Shown piece after piece: positions 21,425 through 54,248 of a stretch of DNA of 64,000 nt. This DNA comes from Patescibacteria group bacterium (lineage in GTDB: Bacteria > Patescibacteriota > Patescibacteriia > UBA10025 > JAHIVO01). Under the pieces are notes generated by a model, which was given only the letters and a program-made list of their open reading frames with translations, had not been told where the DNA came from and did no database searches. The first letter of the stretch is position 1, and the number at the start of each line of letters is the position of its first letter. Where the stretch lies: positions 20,683 to 84,682 of the forward strand of contig JAZDEZ010000015.1 of NCBI GenBank assembly GCA_043808365.1, written 5' to 3'. Both the position numbers and the translations under genes were made by a program.

Positions 21425-21467
21425 ACCTGCATTGTACTGGAAAAATGGCCGGATGGCAAAAATGCTC

Positions 21468-21496
21468 TTGACATGATCTAATGTTTACTGTACAAT
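21468..21496 (+). promoter_or_regulatory. Near-consensus sigma70 promoter driving the retron locus, divergent from glyA.
   Basis: TTGACA, 17-nt spacer, TACAAT. Confidence 0.5.
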
Positions 21497-21502
21497 ACGG
21501 GT

Positions 21503-21778
21503 TGCCAAATTACGTGGCTATGGCGATTCGCCATATTTGATGGTTTTTGAATCTCGAAAGAACTTTTTCAACTCAAAGAAATACCTCCTCTATGCGCGTC
21601 TATCCGCGTCCCTAGCATAGCCTAGGGGTTACTGTTTTCCGCACACAAGGTACAGATTGTAATTGGTACTTTACTGAAATAAGGCTGAAATTACTGTTTA
21701 TCAGTTATAGATAAATTTTTTCTAAAAGGTCGGGGATGACACTCATCCAAAAAACCATTAAAGAAAGGAGGCACAACA
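21503..21778 (+). ncRNA. Candidate retron non-coding RNA (msr/msd) region. Its boundaries are not defined.
   Basis: ~280 nt with no ORF, lying between a strong promoter and the retron-type RT gene. Several stem-loops are present (ATGGCGA-T-TCGCCAT, CCCTAG-CATAGC-CTAGGG, ACTG...CAGT). I could not identify unambiguous a1/a2 repeats by eye. Confidence 0.3.
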
Positions 21779-21985
21779 ATGAAAAAGAAATATTCGGGAA
21801 GAAGGGTAATTTCCACTCTTTCGCTGCGTTACAGTAGGTCCGTTAACTCCTCTGACTCAAATTTAGGCGCACTGCGACAGTTCATAAATGGATGTAAAAA
21901 ACTGTGGAAAATCATATCAACCCTACCTTTTTATCAATTAACTCGCCCGCTAATCACGGGCGAGGTTTTAATACAACAAATTTAA
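21779..21985 (+). CDS. Small basic hypothetical protein (68 aa) overlapping the RT start in another frame.
   Basis: Best SD in the locus (AAAGAAAGGAGGCACAACA-ATG). No recognisable domain. It may instead be non-coding msd sequence. Confidence 0.3.
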   Translation: MKKKYSGRRVISTLSLRYSRSVNSSDSNLGALRQFINGCKKLWKIISTLPFYQLTRPLITGEVLIQQI

Positions 21986-22890
21986 AATTAAAAAACTTAT
22001 CTGATCTCGCCAAATTAATAAATACTCCTGTCTGGTTTATAAATAAATTGATCCAAACAAGACAAAAACGATATAACTTTTGGAATTACCCCAAAAAAAG
22101 TGGCGGTATTAGAACTTTGTCGAGACCAGATGCTGAATTACGGTTTGTCCAAGAAAAGATATATCAAAATATTCTCCGTTTTGTACCTCTTCCTGAATAC
22201 ATTCACTCACAAATAGGCCATTCCCATGTACAACACGCAGTTAGCCATCAAGGTAAACCGCTGGTTTTACTTTTTGATATTGCCGACTTTTTCCCAAGCA
22301 TTAGTACCAGAATGGTAAAAAACGCATTAACCCATGCGGGATTTACTGAAATTGTCGCAAAAAAAATAGCTAACCTGTGCACATTATCGAATAAAAGTAC
22401 ATCGCATGGATTTCTCCCTCAAGGAACCTCAACCAGTCCAGCATTGGCAACACTAGTGGCGACATCGCTTGATCATCGTCTATGGAAACTGAGTTCTAAA
22501 AATAATTGGATCTATACCCGTTTTGCTGATGATATCGCAATTTCAGGAGGTCTAGGCCTAAGACGAGCAAAAAAACTAATACTCAATATTATCAACAGTT
22601 CCAATTTCAAGGTAAGGGAGTCAAAAACTGAAGAAATAATCCCCGGACGCCGTAATAAAATAGTAGGGCTGCAACTTTATGGAAAAAATATTACGCCGCC
22701 AAGAGAATATTACAAACTTTTACGATCTATGATCCACCATCTTCAAACCAATAAAATACGTGGAAAAGCCAGACTGAAATTAAGAAAAAGTATTCAATCA
22801 AGGCTTTCATACGGTCTTTACGTTGAAAAAATAAGCAACACAAAACAAGGAAAGTTTTTTCGGCTTGCCCAAGCAATAACTATCGCTTAA
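21904..22890 (+). CDS. Retron-type reverse transcriptase (GTG start).
   Basis: RT motifs 1-2 YPKKSGGIRTL, motif A LLFDIADFFPSI, motif B' LPQGTSTSPALATL, motif C YTRFADDIAI. The thumb region RRNKIVGLQLYGKNITPPREYYKLLRSMIHHL parallels the retron-RT VTG...IHH region. 328 aa is a typical retron RT length. Confidence 0.8.
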   Translation: MENHINPTFLSINSPANHGRGFNTTNLKLKNLSDLAKLINTPVWFINKLIQTRQKRYNFWNYPKKSGGIRTLSRPDAELRFVQEKIYQNILRFVPLPEYIHSQIGHSHVQHAVSHQGKPLVLLFDIADFFPSISTRMVKNALTHAGFTEIVAKKIANLCTLSNKSTSHGFLPQGTSTSPALATLVATSLDHRLWKLSSKNNWIYTRFADDIAISGGLGLRRAKKLILNIINSSNFKVRESKTEEIIPGRRNKIVGLQLYGKNITPPREYYKLLRSMIHHLQTNKIRGKARLKLRKSIQSRLSYGLYVEKISNTKQGKFFRLAQAITIA

Positions 22891-22891
22891 T

Positions 22892-23416
22892 TTATTTCAC
22901 CTTCGCCCAGAGGTACTCACTGATCAATCTCCCCCGCTTTTTGACCACTTTGCGCATCAGGCCTTCGCGCTTAAAACCGTTCTTTTTTAAAACCTTTTGC
23001 GATGCTCGATTTGGGACAAACGTATACGCGTACACCCGATGAAGTTTGAACTTTTTAAACGCATAGTTAACCACCAGCTTCACTGCCTCTGGGATTATAC
23101 CCTGACCCCAGTATCTCCGTGCCAGCCAATAGCCGATTTCCGCCTTGTGTCGTGGTTCGATATGCGACAAACCGACACACCCGACAATCTCCCTATCCAT
23201 CTCAATGGCAAATTGAATATCTTTGGGTGAGCGCTGACGGTACTGCGGGATTGTCTTGGCAAACCACTTTGTGGCGTCGGACAAACGGTAGGGGTATGGG
23301 ATATGCAATGTGTACCGGTATATTTTGTAGTCGTTAATATTACGGGCTACAGCTGGCGCGTCCGACAGGCGATATGGCCGTAACACAAAACGCTTGGTTT
23401 TGATGACGTAGTTCAT
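22892..23416 (-). CDS. GNAT family N-acetyltransferase (RimJ/RimL-like).
   Basis: RFVLRPYRLSDA..., IVGCVGL, and the acetyl-CoA motif RRYWGQGIIPEAVKLVVNYAF. Confidence 0.75.
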   Translation of the reverse strand: MNYVIKTKRFVLRPYRLSDAPAVARNINDYKIYRYTLHIPYPYRLSDATKWFAKTIPQYRQRSPKDIQFAIEMDREIVGCVGLSHIEPRHKAEIGYWLARRYWGQGIIPEAVKLVVNYAFKKFKLHRVYAYTFVPNRASQKVLKKNGFKREGLMRKVVKKRGRLISEYLWAKVK

Positions 23417-24400: not shown

Positions 24401-25606
24401 TTAATATACTCGATCGATTAACCCGCTGACTTTCTCCATCTTGGCGGAAAACTCGGCGCGTGGCCGGCCAAAACAGAATCCGAGCTGTTCGTAGAGCGCG
24501 ACCTCATTCAGGTCAACAGTCCTCCGCTTGATGGCGGCGGCAATGTCCATATAGTGGATGGTGCCGTTTTCATACCCGGTCACCGTCACGCCGGCAATGC
24601 CCTGCAGCAGCAGGTACATCGCGGCCGCCCCAGTCTCCATGCCGAAATTCGCGTCAAGCGCAGAAGAAAATCCGCATCGCACCAAATGGCTGGGAACAAT
24701 CGCCCGCACCTCCGGCAAGTCATACTGCCCAGCGACGTACATGCCCTGTTCCACCATAAACCGTTTGATTTCCGAATCATCTTTCATCAGCTTCTTTATT
24801 TCCTGGACCACGTACTTGCCGGCTCCGGCCAGCCTCTGATGGCCGAACGCGTCAATGCCGGACCCTTCGTCATGCAATTCTTTGCCGGATGCGTCCTTGA
24901 TGCCTTCCGCCACGACAATGGTGTATGTGCCGGCCTTGACATCACTTTCCATGATGCGCTTCATGTATACCTTCTTCAAATGACGGTATAATTCACCGAA
25001 CTTGACGGGGATTTCCGGAATCAGAATCGCGTCTGCCTCCCCAGCCACACCGCCGCGGAACGCCGCATGGCCGGTATACCTGCCGAACGCCTCTATAACC
25101 AAAATCCGATTATGCGTCCGGCCGGTCGTTTTCAGGTCGCGAATGCAGTCAGCGATGCGGTTAATGGTCGAGTCGCCGCCGAGAGAATATGGCACCAGAT
25201 CCAGATCCATAGTCTTTGGCACATGGATGCACTTGATGCCGTGCTTTTCCAAATCCAACACCACGCCGCCCGTATCATCGCCGCCGCTGATGACCAATCC
25301 TTCAATCTTGAATTTCGCCAAACCGGCCTTGATCCGCTCGTACTTTTTATCATCATCTATTTTTGAAATTTTCACGCGCGAATGCCCTGCCTCGGACCCG
25401 GCAATGCCGATGCTGAAAGTGTCTAAACGCGATGGCGTTAATTCAACCAGGGACTTCATGTCACGGAGGTTATACAGCCCCGCATAGCCGTTCGGGATGG
25501 CGAATGCTTTTACGCCCTTGCGGTTCGCCATCTGGGCCACGCCTTTTACGACGGCGTTCAACCCGCCGCAATCCCCGCCGCTGGTGATAATGCCGATTGT
25601 TTTCAT
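24401..25606 (-). CDS. pfp: Phosphofructokinase, probably pyrophosphate-dependent.
   Basis: IGIITSGGDCGGLNAVV. The GGDDTGG motif (rather than GGDGS) and PKTMDLD match the PPi-PFK signature. Confidence 0.8.
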   Translation of the reverse strand: MKTIGIITSGGDCGGLNAVVKGVAQMANRKGVKAFAIPNGYAGLYNLRDMKSLVELTPSRLDTFSIGIAGSEAGHSRVKISKIDDDKKYERIKAGLAKFKIEGLVISGGDDTGGVVLDLEKHGIKCIHVPKTMDLDLVPYSLGGDSTINRIADCIRDLKTTGRTHNRILVIEAFGRYTGHAAFRGGVAGEADAILIPEIPVKFGELYRHLKKVYMKRIMESDVKAGTYTIVVAEGIKDASGKELHDEGSGIDAFGHQRLAGAGKYVVQEIKKLMKDDSEIKRFMVEQGMYVAGQYDLPEVRAIVPSHLVRCGFSSALDANFGMETGAAAMYLLLQGIAGVTVTGYENGTIHYMDIAAAIKRRTVDLNEVALYEQLGFCFGRPRAEFSAKMEKVSGLIDRVY

Positions 25607-25709
25607 ACGTTTTATTTAATTCCTCAAGCGTCAAACAACCATGAAAACATGACATAGAAGTATAGTAATGGTACGGTTTTAACGCCTCTCAGTCAACCGC
25701 CCCCACCAT

Positions 25710-25836
25710 GTCATTGCGAGGAGCGACCCTGAACTCGATTCAGGGGAGCGACGTGGCAATCTCGGTGCAGTCCAACCAACAAGATCCTCACGTCGTGTCG
25801 CCTCTTTTCATTCGGCGCCACTCCTCAGGATGACAC
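25710..25836 (+). repeat. Copy R3 (full length, ~127 nt) of the MITE-like repeat with imperfect terminal inverted repeats.
   Basis: Left end GTCATTGCGAGGAG, internal GACGTGGCAATCTCGGT and AAGATCCTCACGTCG, right end CACTCCTCAGGATGACAC (reverse complement GTGTCATCCTGAGGAGTG). Confidence 0.5.
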
Positions 25837-25852
25837 ATGGGGCGGTAAGAAT

Positions 25853-25881
25853 TTGACAGCCATCTACAAAAGGTGTAAACT
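25853..25881 (+). promoter_or_regulatory. Sigma70-like promoter.
   Basis: TTGACA, 17-nt spacer, TAAACT. Confidence 0.35.
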
Positions 25882-25887
25882 ACCTCC

Positions 25888-26079
25888 GTATGAACAATAC
25901 TTTTCCACAACTAAAAAACCTCTTCCACTACTGTTGGCATTTTTATTTCTCTTCCGTTGAAGAGGTATATTTACGTAGTGGAAAAATTATGGTCTAATCA
26001 CATCCTGCCACGTAAATAAGAAAAGCCTCTTCAATAGAACGGAAGAGGTATTTTTGTATATCCCTTAAACCATCAACGT
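25888..26079 (+). promoter_or_regulatory. Structured 5' leader: tandem terminator-like hairpins with mutually exclusive pairings (attenuator / candidate riboswitch of unknown class).
   Basis: Three CCTCTTC and two GAAGAGG segments. Hairpins CTCTTC-CGTT-GAAGAG+UAUAUUU and CCTCTTC-AATAGAACG-GAAGAGG+UAUUUUUGUAU. A long-range TTTTCCAC/GTGGAAAA pairing is possible. No T-box sequence is present. Confidence 0.35.
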
Positions 26080-26976
26080 ATGAAAAAATCAGTAATAAAA
26101 ATTGGCTCATTATCCATTCCTCAGATAACACTGGGGGGTGGACGGCCTCGGATACTCATTACCGCGGGCATACATGGCGATGAATTCAGCCAGCAGATAG
26201 TTTTGCAACGGCTGCTCGCCGATCCGCCACAGTTACAACGTGGGTCAATCGTTATCCTGCCGCGAGTTAATCCTCTCGGATTGGCAGAAAATACAGAGGT
26301 AAACCCCACTGATGGATTGAATATTAACCGGGTATTCCCGGGTAAAAAAAATTCGCCAAACATCTCGCGGCGTATCGCTAACATGGTGTTCGAACAGGCG
26401 CTCCAAAGCGATACAGTCGTCGATTTGCATAATTTCACCGATCCGGCTCTGCCCCAGATAATCTACGTTGATGCGGGCAAGCGTCAAATCCGCCAACAAT
26501 CACTGCAGTTCTGCCGAATATATGGGTTTCCCCTGGTCTGGAGGATTCGCGCCAACGACCCGGGCATGGATGGCTCCCGCAAAACGCTCATCTTTAATGC
26601 AGTGCGGGCCGGCATACCTGCTATTGGAGTAGAACTGCCGCCGTTGGACGGGCTGACGGAGAAAGAAATAAAAACTGGAGTAACGGGGCTACGTCGGGTT
26701 CTGCAAGTGATGTCTGATTCTGGTAAAAATTTTCAACAACGCCCAATAACCATCATTGACCGTAAAAACGTACGGGCTCAACAGTCCGGCATCTTCGTCC
26801 CCTTGCTGCCAATCGGTGTCTCGGTGAAACCCAGCAGTATTATCGGAAAAATACTCACCTCCGATCTTCAGGAAATGCCAGTCCGCGCTGAATTCAGTGG
26901 GCTGCTGACACGGCTACGGAGAGCGGGGCCCATTAACAAAAAACAACTCATTGGAAATATTGGAATGAAAAAATAA
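26080..26976 (+). CDS. Succinylglutamate-desuccinylase / aspartoacylase (AstE/AspA) family zinc hydrolase.
   Basis: ITAGIHGDEF (Zn ligands), NPLG...DGLNINRVFPG, DLHN. Confidence 0.6.
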   Translation: MKKSVIKIGSLSIPQITLGGGRPRILITAGIHGDEFSQQIVLQRLLADPPQLQRGSIVILPRVNPLGLAENTEVNPTDGLNINRVFPGKKNSPNISRRIANMVFEQALQSDTVVDLHNFTDPALPQIIYVDAGKRQIRQQSLQFCRIYGFPLVWRIRANDPGMDGSRKTLIFNAVRAGIPAIGVELPPLDGLTEKEIKTGVTGLRRVLQVMSDSGKNFQQRPITIIDRKNVRAQQSGIFVPLLPIGVSVKPSSIIGKILTSDLQEMPVRAEFSGLLTRLRRAGPINKKQLIGNIGMKK

Positions 26977-27026: not shown

Positions 27027-28346
27027 ATGAATGCGCAAACTACACTCGTATCGCCGAATGAACTGAAAGACTCTGCCCTGTCGGTCAAAGCGCGGCTCGA
27101 TGGGTACCAGGTGGGTTTCGGCGAGGACAGGCGATTTATGTCGCTGGTCAGTCCGGCCCCGTACCTGATCTCAACTGACGACCACCAGACGTTGAAAAAG
27201 CGCGGCCACGTGATCCGCCAATGGGTCGAGACGACAAACCGCCTCTACCACGCGTCGCTCACTGATCCGTCGCTATTCTGGCTCCGTGACCTGCTGGAAA
27301 CCGGACTCAACGACGAAATGCGAGCCATCCATCGTCAGCTCCACGCCAAGCAGCCGATGCGCGCCCCGTTCTTCATGCGGATGGACCAGCCGACATTTAC
27401 CTGCGCCGCAGAAGCGCAGACTCCCGGCTCCGGCTGGGGGTACCACGCCGCGCTGGCCACCTGCTACGAGGAATATACCGTCCTCGGAAGATCATTCGTC
27501 GCCAGAGTCGCTCACACATTGCGGGAACTGACGGGTAAGGATCGTCCACGCGTGGTGCACCTGCTGCATAAAGTCGATTATTACGGCACTGAAGCAACAT
27601 TCTTTGCCCAAGCTATCCGAGCCGCTGGCATTGATTTCACTATCAGTGTCAGAACCATTCCTGAAAATATCAAAACCTATGACGTTGTTTTCCGCCACTA
27701 CTTGGAGGAACTCGGTCAATACTCTGGTTGGCAGAATCTGTTGGGACTGTACGATCGCGGCGGCATCGAAATCGAACCTGCTCCTAACATCATCACCGAC
27801 CATAAGATCTCTATGATGCTACCGTTCCATCCGAGGACGTTCATGTATTATTCGGATGCCGTACGCTCCATTTTCCCGGCGACGTACCTGGTCGACCCGT
27901 ACGCTACCTACCAGATGCGCATCAGTAATAACTATGCGCACCCGGTCAGGCTAAGCAACCTGCCAGGCATCCCGCCGAAACAGCGCCGGCTGACGCTGAA
28001 GTACGCAGGCATGGATCCTCAAAAACGCGCCGGCGGGCGGGGAGTGTTCAACCTATCCATGAGCGATGAAGCTGAAATCAATCGGCTCCTCCAGCAGGTC
28101 ATTGATGACACCTACAACGGCATACCATGGCTGCTTCAGGAAATGGTGTTGCGGCGGTATCCGGTTACATACCTATCGGCTGAAGGCGCCATCGCCAACG
28201 ACCAGTGGTACGCCCGCATCAACCCGTTCTATGCCTTTCCGGCATCCGGCGGGAGTGAACTGCTCGGATGCCCCGTGCATTTCCGGAATTTCTGGAAAGT
28301 GCATGGGCAGCCGGACGCGGTGGAAACAATCATGGCAATTGCTTGA
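27027..28346 (+). CDS. Hypothetical protein, possibly a glutathionylspermidine-synthase-like (circularly permuted) ATP-grasp ligase.
   Basis: RMDQPTFTCAAEAQTPGSGWGYHAAL resembles the R-x-D...E-x-N-A-D-T-P motif of GSP-synthetase/YgiC-like ATP-grasp proteins. This is a weak, motif-only call. Confidence 0.35.
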   Translation: MNAQTTLVSPNELKDSALSVKARLDGYQVGFGEDRRFMSLVSPAPYLISTDDHQTLKKRGHVIRQWVETTNRLYHASLTDPSLFWLRDLLETGLNDEMRAIHRQLHAKQPMRAPFFMRMDQPTFTCAAEAQTPGSGWGYHAALATCYEEYTVLGRSFVARVAHTLRELTGKDRPRVVHLLHKVDYYGTEATFFAQAIRAAGIDFTISVRTIPENIKTYDVVFRHYLEELGQYSGWQNLLGLYDRGGIEIEPAPNIITDHKISMMLPFHPRTFMYYSDAVRSIFPATYLVDPYATYQMRISNNYAHPVRLSNLPGIPPKQRRLTLKYAGMDPQKRAGGRGVFNLSMSDEAEINRLLQQVIDDTYNGIPWLLQEMVLRRYPVTYLSAEGAIANDQWYARINPFYAFPASGGSELLGCPVHFRNFWKVHGQPDAVETIMAIA

Positions 28347-52879: not shown

Positions 52880-54031
52880 TTACTTCTTCAGTACGCCAAC
52901 CTTATCCAGCTTCTCCCAGGGGAATTCCACGTCAGTCCGGCCGAAATGCCCGTAGGCGGCAGTCTTCTCATAGATCGGCTGCTTAAGGTGCAGTTGCTCG
53001 ATGATATCCGCCGGTTTTAACGGGAAATGCTTCCTGACCAAATCTTCCAGATCACCGTTCTCCAGCTTGCCGGTGCCGAACGTATTGATCATGATCGAAA
53101 CCGGCTCGGCCACGCCGATAGCATAAGCCAACTGGACTTCGCACCGCTTGGCCAGGCCCGCGGCGACAATATTTTTTGCGATATAACGCGCGGCGTATGA
53201 AGCGCTGCGATCGACTTTGGTGACGTCTTTGCCGGAAAAACACCCTCCTCCATGCGCGCCTACCCCGCCATAGGTATCAACAATTATCTTGCGGCCAGTC
53301 AGGCCCGTGTCGCCTGGAGGCCCGCCAATGACAAAGCGGCCAGTGGCGTTAATAAAAAAATTAATTTTTTCATCGTACCAATCTCCCAAAACTGGTTTGA
53401 TGACATACTCCTTAATGTCTGCCCGAAGTTTCTCCATTTCCACGTCTTCCGAATGATGCGCGGCAATGACCACCGTCTCAATGCGATGCGGCTTGTCGTC
53501 CGCATACTCTACGGTCACCTGCGATTTGCCGTCGGGCCTTAAATAAGGAAGCTGGCCGCTCTTGCGAACCTCGGCCAGTTTATGCGTGAGCCGGTGAGCC
53601 AGTGAAATGGTCAATGGCATGTACTCCGGCGTCTCGTCGCAGGCGTAGCCGAACATCAGGCCCTGATCGCCGGCCCCCTGCTCCTTGCGCTCGCCCGTGC
53701 CGTCCACGCCCTGGGCGATGTCGGGCGATTGTTCGTGGATGGTGCTGATCACGCCCACATCCTTATAGCAGAAACCGTACTCGGATTTGTCGTACCCGAT
53801 TTTCTTGAGTGTCCGGCGGACGATCGCCTGGATGTCCACATAGCCGGTCGTCTTGACCTCGCCGCCGACCAGCACCAGGCCGGTGGTGACAAAACATTCC
53901 ACGGCCGAGTGGCAGTCCTTATCCTGCTTCAGCATGTCGTCATACACCGCATCCGAGATTTGGTCGCACACCTTGTCCGGGTGCCCCTCCGTGACCGACT
54001 CCGAGGTGAATAATTTTTTCTGATGTGACAT
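52880..54031 (-). CDS. metK: S-adenosylmethionine synthetase.
   Basis: [29 protein letters not shown]. Confidence 0.9.
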
Positions 54032-54061: not shown

Positions 54062-54248
54062 GTAAAAAATAAAAAAAATCTCCTATCAGATAAGAGATTA
54101 CTACAGAGAATTCACCTCTTATCTATCCCCCGCACCTTGAGGCGTGGGAGCTGGACTTAGCACCCGAACTTCGTCTTGTGCCCGAATGGGTTGCTGGAGT
54201 GTCAACGGCCCAGTTGCCTACACTCACTCTTGATAATTGGTTGGGTTG
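54062..54248 (-). ncRNA. SAM-I (S-box) riboswitch with a terminator expression platform, in the metK leader.
   Basis: Read on the minus strand: UUAUCAAGAG...CUGGGCC...AGCAACC...GGUGCUAAGUCCAGC...P4 hairpin...GAUAGAUAAGAGG, which follows the SAM-I consensus order. It is followed by the AATCTCTTATC-TGAT-AGGAGATT hairpin and U8. Confidence 0.65.

Follow-up and report, generated by a model that had tools for sequence, protein, structure and literature searches.

A candidate leader-peptide attenuator with an aromatic codon run upstream of an AstE-like hydrolase and ATP-grasp ligase gene pair in a Patescibacteria group bacterium

Introduction

What could a leader in front of two uncharacterised enzyme genes sense in a bacterium of the Patescibacteria, and how? 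The question is raised by a stretch of 64,000 nucleotides from a Patescibacteria group bacterium (assembly GCA_043808365.1, contig JAZDEZ010000015.1, positions 20,683 to 84,682 of the forward strand), which we call the window. Within it, a leader of about 190 nucleotides (positions 25888-26079) lies downstream of a promoter and precedes a gene for an AstE/AspA-family hydrolase, which is followed by a gene for an ATP-grasp protein. An initial annotation, made from the sequence, had described this leader as a pair of tandem hairpins of no recognised class, either an attenuator or a candidate novel riboswitch. Proteobacteria and Actinobacteria provide the textbook cases of ribosome-mediated attenuation, and our literature search returned no report of it in the Patescibacteria/Candidate Phyla Radiation (CPR), a group generally described as very limited in amino-acid biosynthesis. 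We propose, with a probability of about 0.75, that the leader attenuates transcription by way of a translated leader peptide, the ribosome sensing the supply of charged aromatic tRNAs. Such a leader would most likely be a new member of the known class of leader-peptide attenuators, and not a riboswitch.

Results

The leader reading frame and its start

The sigma-70-type promoter that the initial annotation had placed before the leader is indeed present and matches the consensus at 10 of 12 positions (Table 1). Overlooked at that stage was an open reading frame (ORF) of 35 codons that overlaps the first hairpin. It has no Shine-Dalgarno (SD) motif, its ATG closely follows the -10 box, and its message is probably leaderless or nearly so. 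Codons 12 to 20 are all Phe, His, Tyr, Cys or Trp codons. The contigs recovered with the homologous gene pair are given L numbers, and the window together with seven of them provides the eight leaders compared here. Between the window and L003, codons 13-20 show three synonymous and no non-synonymous changes, against three and nine in the remainder of the ORF (Fisher p = 0.044).

A start of this kind is not isolated in the window. The motif TAnnnT stands 5-9 nt before the ATG at 12 of 49 predicted gene starts (for example 12495, 15305-, 16818, 19795- and 21424-), compared with 5.6% of all ATG triplets (binomial p = 1e-5), and 35 of the 50 long ORFs examined lack an SD motif; GGAGG is used by genes inside operons, among them that of the 439-aa ATP-grasp protein. 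Given this enrichment and the scarcity of SD motifs, leaderless mRNAs seem to be common in this CPR genome. Moreover, the 22 nt around the leader ATG (25876-25897, TAAACTACCTCCGTATGAACAA) and around the ATG of the AstE-like gene (26066-26087, TAAACCATCAACGTATGAAAAA) are 77% identical, and the start of the divergent phosphofructokinase (PFK) gene shares the AACGTATGAAAA context with both. These similar surroundings may be a context common to start sites or a remnant of a duplication.

Table 1. Coordinates and sequences of the features discussed (aa, amino acids; positions are those of the window or of the locus named)
Feature	Source	Position	Strand	Remarks
PFK gene	Window	24401-25606	-	Transcribed divergently from the leader and the AstE-like gene
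Sigma-70-type promoter, TTGACA, 17-nt spacer, TAAACT	Window	25853-25881	+	-35 box 25853-25858; -10 box 25876-25881
Leader ORF, 35 codons, MNNTFPQLKNLFHYCWHFYFSSVEEVYLRSGKIMV	Window	25890-25997	+	No SD; ATG 8 nt after the -10 box
Segment 0: TTTTCCAC, CCTCTTC, CCACTAC	Window	25901-25931	+	Able to pair with 25959-25985
CCTCTTC, exact copies	Window	25919-25925, 26026-26032	+	
Aromatic codon run F12 H13 Y14 C15 W16 H17 F18 Y19 F20	Window	25923-25949	+	
TCTCTTC, variant copy	Window	25948-25954	+	Segment 1; 5' arm of hairpin 1:2, inside the leader ORF
Hairpin 1, TCTCTTC-CGTT-GAAGAGG	Window	25948-25965	+	Followed by TATATTT, an interrupted T-tract
GAAGAGG copies	Window	25959-25965, 26042-26048	+	
Segment 2 (GAAGAGG) and extension TATTTACGT	Window	25959-25976	+	3' arm of 1:2; 5' arm of antiterminator 2:3
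ACGTAAATA and segment 3 (CCTCTTC)	Window	26010-26032	+	3' arm of antiterminator; 5' arm of terminator
Hairpin 2, GCCTCTTC-AATAGAACG-GAAGAGGT	Window	26025-26049	+	Followed by ATTTTTG
Segment 4 (GAAGAGG), TA, T5	Window	26042-26055	+	3' arm of terminator and U-tract (T-run 26051-26055)
AstE/AspA-family zinc hydrolase gene, 298 aa	Window	26080-26976	+	Pfam PF24827, E = 2.9e-21
Gene of 439-aa protein, ATP-grasp fold of the eukaryotic glutathione-synthetase type	Window	27027-28346	+	Strong SD GAAGGAGG
Leader peptide MN(N/T)TFPQLKN..HYCWHFYFS..	Window, L001, L003			35 aa
Leader peptide MNSKQLQMNHYCWFFSFTR	L002			
Leader peptide MQLRQTHFYCFDWYFSS	L004			
Leader peptide MNNTQAQMYCYHWFVTS	L005			
Leader peptide MKTIQTNSYYYFFFTS	L006			
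Leader peptide MKNFHTNNNYYFFFTSY	L007			
Outer helix ATCCAAATTAA / TTAATTTGGAT	L002			
Outer helix TCATACAA / TTGTATGA	L004			
Outer helix AATACCC / GGGTATT	L005			
Outer helix AACCATA / TATGGTT	L006			
Outer helix GACTATAAA / TTTATGGTC	L007			
Regulatory region of distant locus	L015	914-1460		
Regulatory region of distant locus	L017	169-770		
Regulatory region of distant locus	L023	2480-3005		

Repeats, hairpins and known RNA families

Three CCTCTTC and two GAAGAGG segments had been counted in the leader. Both GAAGAGG copies and two exact CCTCTTC copies are found, the third copy reading TCTCTTC. Of the two terminator-like hairpins with U-tracts described at first, the second is a predicted intrinsic terminator, whereas the T-tract behind the first is interrupted and this hairpin is better read as the pairing of segments 1 and 2, possibly a pause site or an anti-antiterminator. 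Our hairpin scan skipped hairpin 2 because its loop is 9 nt long. The hairpin motif CCTCTT..AAGRGG occurs a single time in the 64 kb, and the leader folds better than 200 of 200 shuffled sequences (z = -3.1). The long-range pairings proposed for it, TTTTCCAC/GTGGAAAA and CCACTAC/GTAGTGG, both exist. Their 5' arms lie in segment 0, which is specific to the clade of the window and is not kept in the leaders with short ORFs or past the closest relatives.

The initial annotation recognised no known leader family here, and the Rfam searches agree. In the region 25600-26200 nothing reached a gathering threshold, the best hit at E <= 10 being PyrR with 18 bits (threshold 54, E = 6.7); the window leader gave no T-box match at E <= 10 and has neither T-box sequence nor Stem I features. 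With the leader of L006 the best hit was Phe_leader at 20.3 bits, below the gathering threshold of 55 (E = 0.31).

Conservation in eight close operons

A search of 5.8 billion clusters gave the AstE-like protein no more than seven close relatives (41-79% identity); the 439-aa protein has six (52-85%), and the two genes stand side by side in every contig recovered. The initial annotation had named absence of the leader from relatives as counter-evidence. Instead, its layout is common to the window and all seven other homologous operons recovered, where the unit occurs solely with this operon (8/8) and in constant orientation. All eight leaders contain TTGACA, a 17-nt spacer, TAnnnT and, 8-9 nt further on, an ATG preceded by T at position -1. 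An ORF of 16-35 codons follows, with 5-9 consecutive or near-consecutive codons of aromatic type (a mix of F, Y, W, H and C), and then, in fixed order, come segment 1 (CCTCTT), segment 2 (AAGAGG), an AT-rich spacer of 45-65 nt, segment 3 (CCTCTT), segment 4 (AAGAGG), a run of 5-7 T and 24-41 nt without SD before the ATG of the AstE-like gene.

The aromatic runs read HYCWHFYF, HYCWFFSF, HFYCFDWYF, MYCYHWF, SYYYFFF and NYYFFF, which means that an aromatic composition is kept and a sequence motif is not. Trp is found in six of the eight peptides (L006 and L007 lack it), and six of the eight leaders have one Cys codon. Between the Cys (TGT) and Trp (TGG) codons, L004 and L005 have indels of 6 nt, which are in frame. 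The fixed position of the ATG, the in-frame indels and the synonymous-only change in the run point to coding constraint on the leader ORF. Four segments of 6-7 nt and, behind segment 2, a short motif of the TGTTTG type stand out in a leader RNA that is otherwise AT-rich and variable both in sequence and in length; no aptamer-like conserved core is found across the eight leaders. By inspection, no -35/-10 pair is conserved in them before the AstE-like ATG.

Alternative pairings and their energetics

Segments 1 and 3 have the same sequence, as do segments 2 and 4; therefore segment 2 can pair with 1 or 3, and segment 3 with 2 or 4. Over the eight leaders, the pairing energies are -4 to -8.6 kcal/mol for 1:2, -13 to -30 for 2:3 and -7 to -12.5 for 3:4, with -24.5 for 2:3 versus -12.3 for 3:4 in the window. 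The 2:3 duplex outgrows the core that it shares with 1:2 and 3:4. In the window the extension joins TATTTACGT (25968-25976) to ACGTAAATA (26010-26018), in L003 it joins ACGTGTG to CACACGT, and L002 and L006 each use other sequences. When the leaders, or the terminator region, were aligned with MAFFT and folded with RNAalifold, the arms fell out of register and nothing beyond the invariant core was recovered; we therefore replaced column-based covariation counts by shuffle tests on each sequence. The four core segments are nearly invariant and show none of the covariation that the initial annotation had suggested checking. The 2:3 extensions beat shuffled sequences (p = 0.004 in the window, 0.003-0.29 per lineage, Fisher combined p = 4e-6).

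The leaders with short ORFs have, in addition, an outer helix around the terminator whose sequence differs in each lineage (combined p = 0.006; Table 1). The 3' arm of this helix lies directly before the AstE-like ATG, and an effect on translation initiation is therefore possible.

Simulation of the ribosome position

We moved the ribosomal A-site over every codon of each ORF, with 12 nt downstream occluded and only the RNA 3' of the ribosome allowed to fold. With the A-site anywhere up to the aromatic run, the terminator 3:4 has a probability of about 0, the first five or six codons of L004 excepted. In each of the eight leaders this probability climbs to about 1 at most one or two codons from where the run ends, independently of ORF length. 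Expressed in tenths, it is 0 at W16, 0 at H17, 1 at F18, 5 at Y19 and 10 at F20 in the window; in L006 it is 0 at F14 and 8 at T15. In the five short ORFs the stop codon falls in or beside hairpin 1:2. The geometry obtained in this simulation is that of classical attenuators. The 3'-only folding replaced a masking model in which pairs could span the ribosome; that model gave odd results in the clade of the window, with segment 2 captured by segment 0 and with 2:3 pairing again in the wake of a ribosome that had reached the stop codon.

The enzyme genes downstream of the leader

The nearest solved relatives of the AstE-like protein are uncharacterised AstE/AspA proteins and the N-acetyl-diaminobutyrate deacetylase DoeB. 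Its ATG at 26080 has no SD motif, as was noticed at first sight. The AAGAGG sequence was ruled out as its SD, since it lies 28-36 nt from the ATG, and an internal promoter was sought and nothing conserved was found.

The 439-aa protein has no match in Pfam, NCBIfam or the PDB sequences. Its ATP-grasp label holds at the level of the fold: the AlphaFold2 (AF2) model built from a 69-sequence alignment has a predicted local distance difference test score (pLDDT) of 95.4, and Foldseek matches this model to glutathione and homoglutathione synthetases (E = 1e-14 to 1e-11, TM-score 0.64, probability 1.00), with YgiC, GspS and trypanothione synthetase as further matches. An AF2 run on seven close homologues gave a pLDDT of 46.8 and was not usable. 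By its predicted fold, the protein is an ATP-grasp carboxylate-amine ligase.

Distant operons and tryptophan

A profile search with the 439-aa protein returned about 330 relatives (matches to representative clusters). At 31-36% identity, the loci again pair an ATP-grasp gene with an AstE-like gene, sometimes in swapped order. L014 carries at 460-758 an Rfam T-box (100.7 bits, gathering threshold 93) with the specifier loop GAA-UGG-A, that is, a Trp codon. L015/L018, L017 and L023 have a Trp_repressor-family gene upstream (PF01371, 62-75 bits) and palindromes of the GTACTAGTAC type. The loci with this TrpR-type gene also hold small ORFs containing WW or W..W and followed by a terminator (MNLFKTYWWQLILSPYR, MNISMKSWWGANTYVFASIF, MNLLNKKFLIINGCKIWRAWFNFKLSPV), and L021 has at 520-735 an ORF of leaderless type, MEYLVNQTLNGAWNWTGHRAESQV, containing WNW, plus a terminator. 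When the ribosome was moved over these frames, the simulated antitermination window took in the W codons in L015, L021 and L023; L017 showed a slight dip only.

Neighbouring genes lead to the same amino acid. A tRNA-Trp(CCA) gene, within the apparent operon, lies between the ATP-grasp and AstE-like genes in L015 (2744-2818), L016 (1471-1545) and L017 (2058-2132). In L020 (1880-2011) the gene after the ATP-grasp gene opens with the N-terminus of a tryptophanyl-tRNA synthetase (TrpRS); its four best NCBIfam matches are all trpS, with a score below the cut-off because it is a fragment of 44 aa. Judging from these sequences, the enzyme pair is repeatedly wired to tryptophan and to tRNA-Trp sensing.

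Other observations

An imperfect palindrome of about 150 nt (25696-25846) stands between the divergent PFK promoter and the leader promoter, with arms at 25709-25733 and 25811-25835 and outer pairs ACCGCCCC/GGGGCGGT. It is present as a single copy in the window and has no Rfam match; L003 lacks it although its intergenic region is syntenic in other respects, which suggests an insertion. On the other side, three of the close operons have, 3' of the ATP-grasp gene, a gene for a conserved 77-89 aa protein predicted to have two membrane helices (..AWYTLVVGIL..PNWYLG..; L002 6462-6731, L004 6464-6697, L005 6418-6651), which is absent from the window; in L004 and L005 the next gene encodes a Big_5/Peptidase_C39_2 protein. 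Some distant ATP-grasp relatives are fused to other domains, HMGL-like in P0162 and a weak radical-SAM match in P0172, and P0168 and P0178 resemble P0162 in length and match layout. Such fusions may hint at the chemistry of the wider ATP-grasp family.

Elsewhere in the window, an ORF of a retron-type reverse transcriptase (21904-22890, +) matches Pfam RVT_1 and NCBIfam retron_St85_RT (161 bits, below the cut-off of 235). It lies in a low-GC island (GC 0.38 at 22001-23000), and the 480-nt noncoding gap before it (21425-21903) could provide room for an msr/msd RNA; no Rfam match was found. A SAM-I riboswitch (54116-54239, -; 55 bits, gathering threshold 44.4) precedes metK (52880-54031, -) in the ordinary arrangement.

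Discussion

The initial suggestion of transcription attenuation is well matched by a conserved intrinsic terminator directly before the gene and by a mutually exclusive, more stable alternative pairing. Since the leaders have no aptamer core and keep an aromatic ORF at the place where a stalled ribosome would free segment 2, the sensor is most likely the translating ribosome. The regulatory scenario that we propose is the following. Transcription would start at the ATG (25890), or 1-3 nt before it, and the 35-codon ORF would be translated in a leaderless or near-leaderless mode. When aromatic tRNAs are charged, the ribosome would clear codons 12-20 and reach or pass segment 2 (25959-25965), thereby blocking 2:3; the terminator 3:4 (26026-26048) would then form and RNA polymerase would halt at the T-run (26051-26055). 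If the ribosome stalls on the Trp, Phe or Tyr codons (possibly also His or Cys), it would cover segment 1 and leave segment 2 and its extension free to pair with segment 3. The 2:3 antiterminator, which is much more stable, would exclude the terminator and the AstE-like hydrolase and ATP-grasp ligase genes would be transcribed. Hairpin 1:2 with its U-rich tail might serve as a pause that synchronises the ribosome and the polymerase. The sequence comparisons and the folding models show the anatomy of the leader, how far it is conserved, how stable its pairings are and where the codons lie with respect to the switch; the start of transcription, translation of the ORF, ribosome stalling and the amino acids sensed are inferred from them.

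Several other explanations of this anatomy have to be considered. The small ORF might encode a functional peptide, for example the aromatic-rich precursor of a ribosomally synthesised and post-translationally modified peptide on which the ATP-grasp ligase and the AstE-like peptidase would act, the hairpin and T-run being a partial terminator that sets the precursor:enzyme ratio. Other systems are known to have short precursors rich in aromatic residues, and terminators that allow read-through behind the precursor gene; the peptide gene is always directly 5' of an ATP-grasp enzyme and an M14-like hydrolase (eight close loci), and the aromatic residues are kept at the amino-acid level between the window and L003. 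However, these peptides of 16-35 residues have composition only in common and lack a recognition or leader motif, the ATP-grasp fold is of the glutathione-synthetase type, and neither the 2:3 pairing nor the aromatic run at the switch point is predicted by such a function. In addition, the L014 pair has a Trp T-box and no such peptide, and other relatives have unrelated W-codon leaders. The tryptophan wiring of the distant operons fits a ribosome-based amino-acid sensor and argues against the peptide as an obligatory substrate of the enzymes, and we consider a functional peptide very unlikely. Slightly less probable still is an attenuator that works without translation, in which a ligand, as in a novel riboswitch, or a bound protein would choose between 2:3 and 3:4. 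Control of this sort had been part of the initial annotation, and it agrees with the conserved terminator/antiterminator alternatives and with the lack of any matching Rfam family. It sits poorly with a spacer that varies in sequence and length and with the missing aptamer-like core; there are no TRAP-type (G/U)AG repeats and no PyrR site (18 bits versus a threshold of 54). What is conserved instead is of a coding nature, namely the ATG position, the in-frame indels and the synonymous-only aromatic run. The polyamines or glutamate and aspartate derivatives once suggested as signals are also unlikely, because the aromatic codon run points to charged aromatic tRNAs.

TnaC arrests in response to free tryptophan, and a nascent aromatic peptide could similarly stall its ribosome on a free small molecule rather than on the state of tRNA charging. 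The same anatomy would work, with the stalled ribosome freeing segment 2, and six of the eight peptides contain Trp. Nevertheless, arrest peptides need specific conserved residues and spacing, whereas here aromatic composition only is retained and L006 and L007 lack Trp; moreover, the Trp T-box of a homologous operon speaks for uncharged tRNA as the inducer, and thus for a response to starvation instead of excess. We regard such an arrest as highly improbable, and give just as little weight to an independent small gene, for a small RNA or a small protein, with its own promoter and terminator and with the AstE-like gene expressed separately. The promoter, ORF and terminator do make up a complete unit, and the resemblance between TAAACCATCAACGTATG before the AstE-like ATG and TAAACTACCTCCGTATG before the leader ATG could hint at a second leaderless start. 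Yet only 24-41 nt separate the T-run from the AstE-like ATG, with no -35/-10 pair conserved in the eight leaders, TAAACC lacks the invariant final T and has no -35-like box upstream, and the unit is found solely with this operon, in 8 of 8 cases and in constant orientation.

Attenuation by a translating ribosome also has points against it. Classical attenuator leaders usually repeat one amino acid, whereas the run in the window mixes five with a single Trp codon, and L006 and L007 have no Trp codon. The start of transcription, translation of the ORF and termination at 26055 are predictions, and the AstE-like gene itself has no SD motif. In a stop-codon frame test the ORF frame was not singled out; the missing stop codons are uninformative, because frame +2 is open as well. 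The core segments show no covariation because they are nearly invariant, and the eight leaders come from no more than about 5-6 independent lineages. Without translation, seven of the eight leaders favour the antiterminator at equilibrium and hairpin 1:2 is weak, so that an 'off' state by default would require kinetic trapping. In the clade of the window, segment 0 is able to capture segment 2, and the ORF extends 30 nt beyond segment 2, to 25997, which would hold the ribosome longer on the 5' arm of the antiterminator. Finally, the link between the enzyme pair and tryptophan is drawn from regulation and gene neighbourhood only.

The proposed mechanism resembles that of the enterobacterial trpL and pheL leaders (Rfam RF00513, RF01859), with a short ORF whose sensed codons lie just before or in segment 1, four segments that form either 1:2 and 3:4 or 2:3, and an intrinsic terminator directly before the first structural gene; the L006 and L007 peptides (..YYYFFFTS) even resemble PheL. 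Unlike these leaders, the window ORF is SD-less and probably leaderless, its codons are a mixture of Trp, Tyr, Phe, His and Cys, segments 1 and 3 are identical, as are 2 and 4, the host belongs to the Patescibacteria/CPR, and the regulated genes are not known biosynthetic ones. In Corynebacterium glutamicum, the aroR leader before aroF has a Phe-Tyr-Phe motif at which ribosome stalling raises transcription of a downstream operon linked to aromatic amino acids (Neshat et al. 2014, as summarised in PMC11802643). The two systems, between which no sequence relationship is expected, share a mixed aromatic leader peptide and differ in that the run studied here is longer, includes Trp, His and Cys, and precedes an uncharacterised hydrolase-ligase pair, not a known enzyme of the shikimate pathway. 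Mycobacterial leaderless polycysteine short ORFs act as Cys-responsive attenuators of the downstream operon (bioRxiv 10.1101/834739). They too are unannotated, lie at or beside the 5' end of the transcript and carry a run of codons for the sensed amino acid, whereas the window leader has aromatic codons, a clear intrinsic terminator/antiterminator pair and a host from another phylum. The Trp T-box of L014 responds to the same signal, uncharged tRNA-Trp, and the window leader would read charging via the ribosome and not by binding the tRNA.

What would the two enzymes do under such control? Aminoacylase 3, a deacetylase of N-acetyl aromatic amino acids, belongs to the AstE/AspA family; an AstE-like hydrolase that frees aromatic amino acids on starvation would fit the regulation. 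A literature search found nothing relevant on a link between tryptophan and the AstE/ATP-grasp pair. Tentatively, and at somewhat less than even odds, we suggest that the leader is one of at least four unrelated devices placed before the same pair (aromatic-codon leader, W-codon leader, Trp T-box and TrpR-type repressor), and that the pair would then be an unrecognised module supplying tryptophan, aromatic amino acids or charged tRNA-Trp in CPR/Patescibacteria and relatives.

The leader suggests that leaderless translation and transcription-translation coupling operate in minimal CPR cells. The regulatory logic outweighs the leader itself, as it offers a way into the function of two uncharacterised enzymes, of which the ATP-grasp protein has no Pfam model. 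If the aromatic-codon and W-codon leaders, the Trp T-box and TrpR all converge on this pair, it probably helps to restore the supply of tryptophanyl- or other aromatic aminoacyl-tRNAs.

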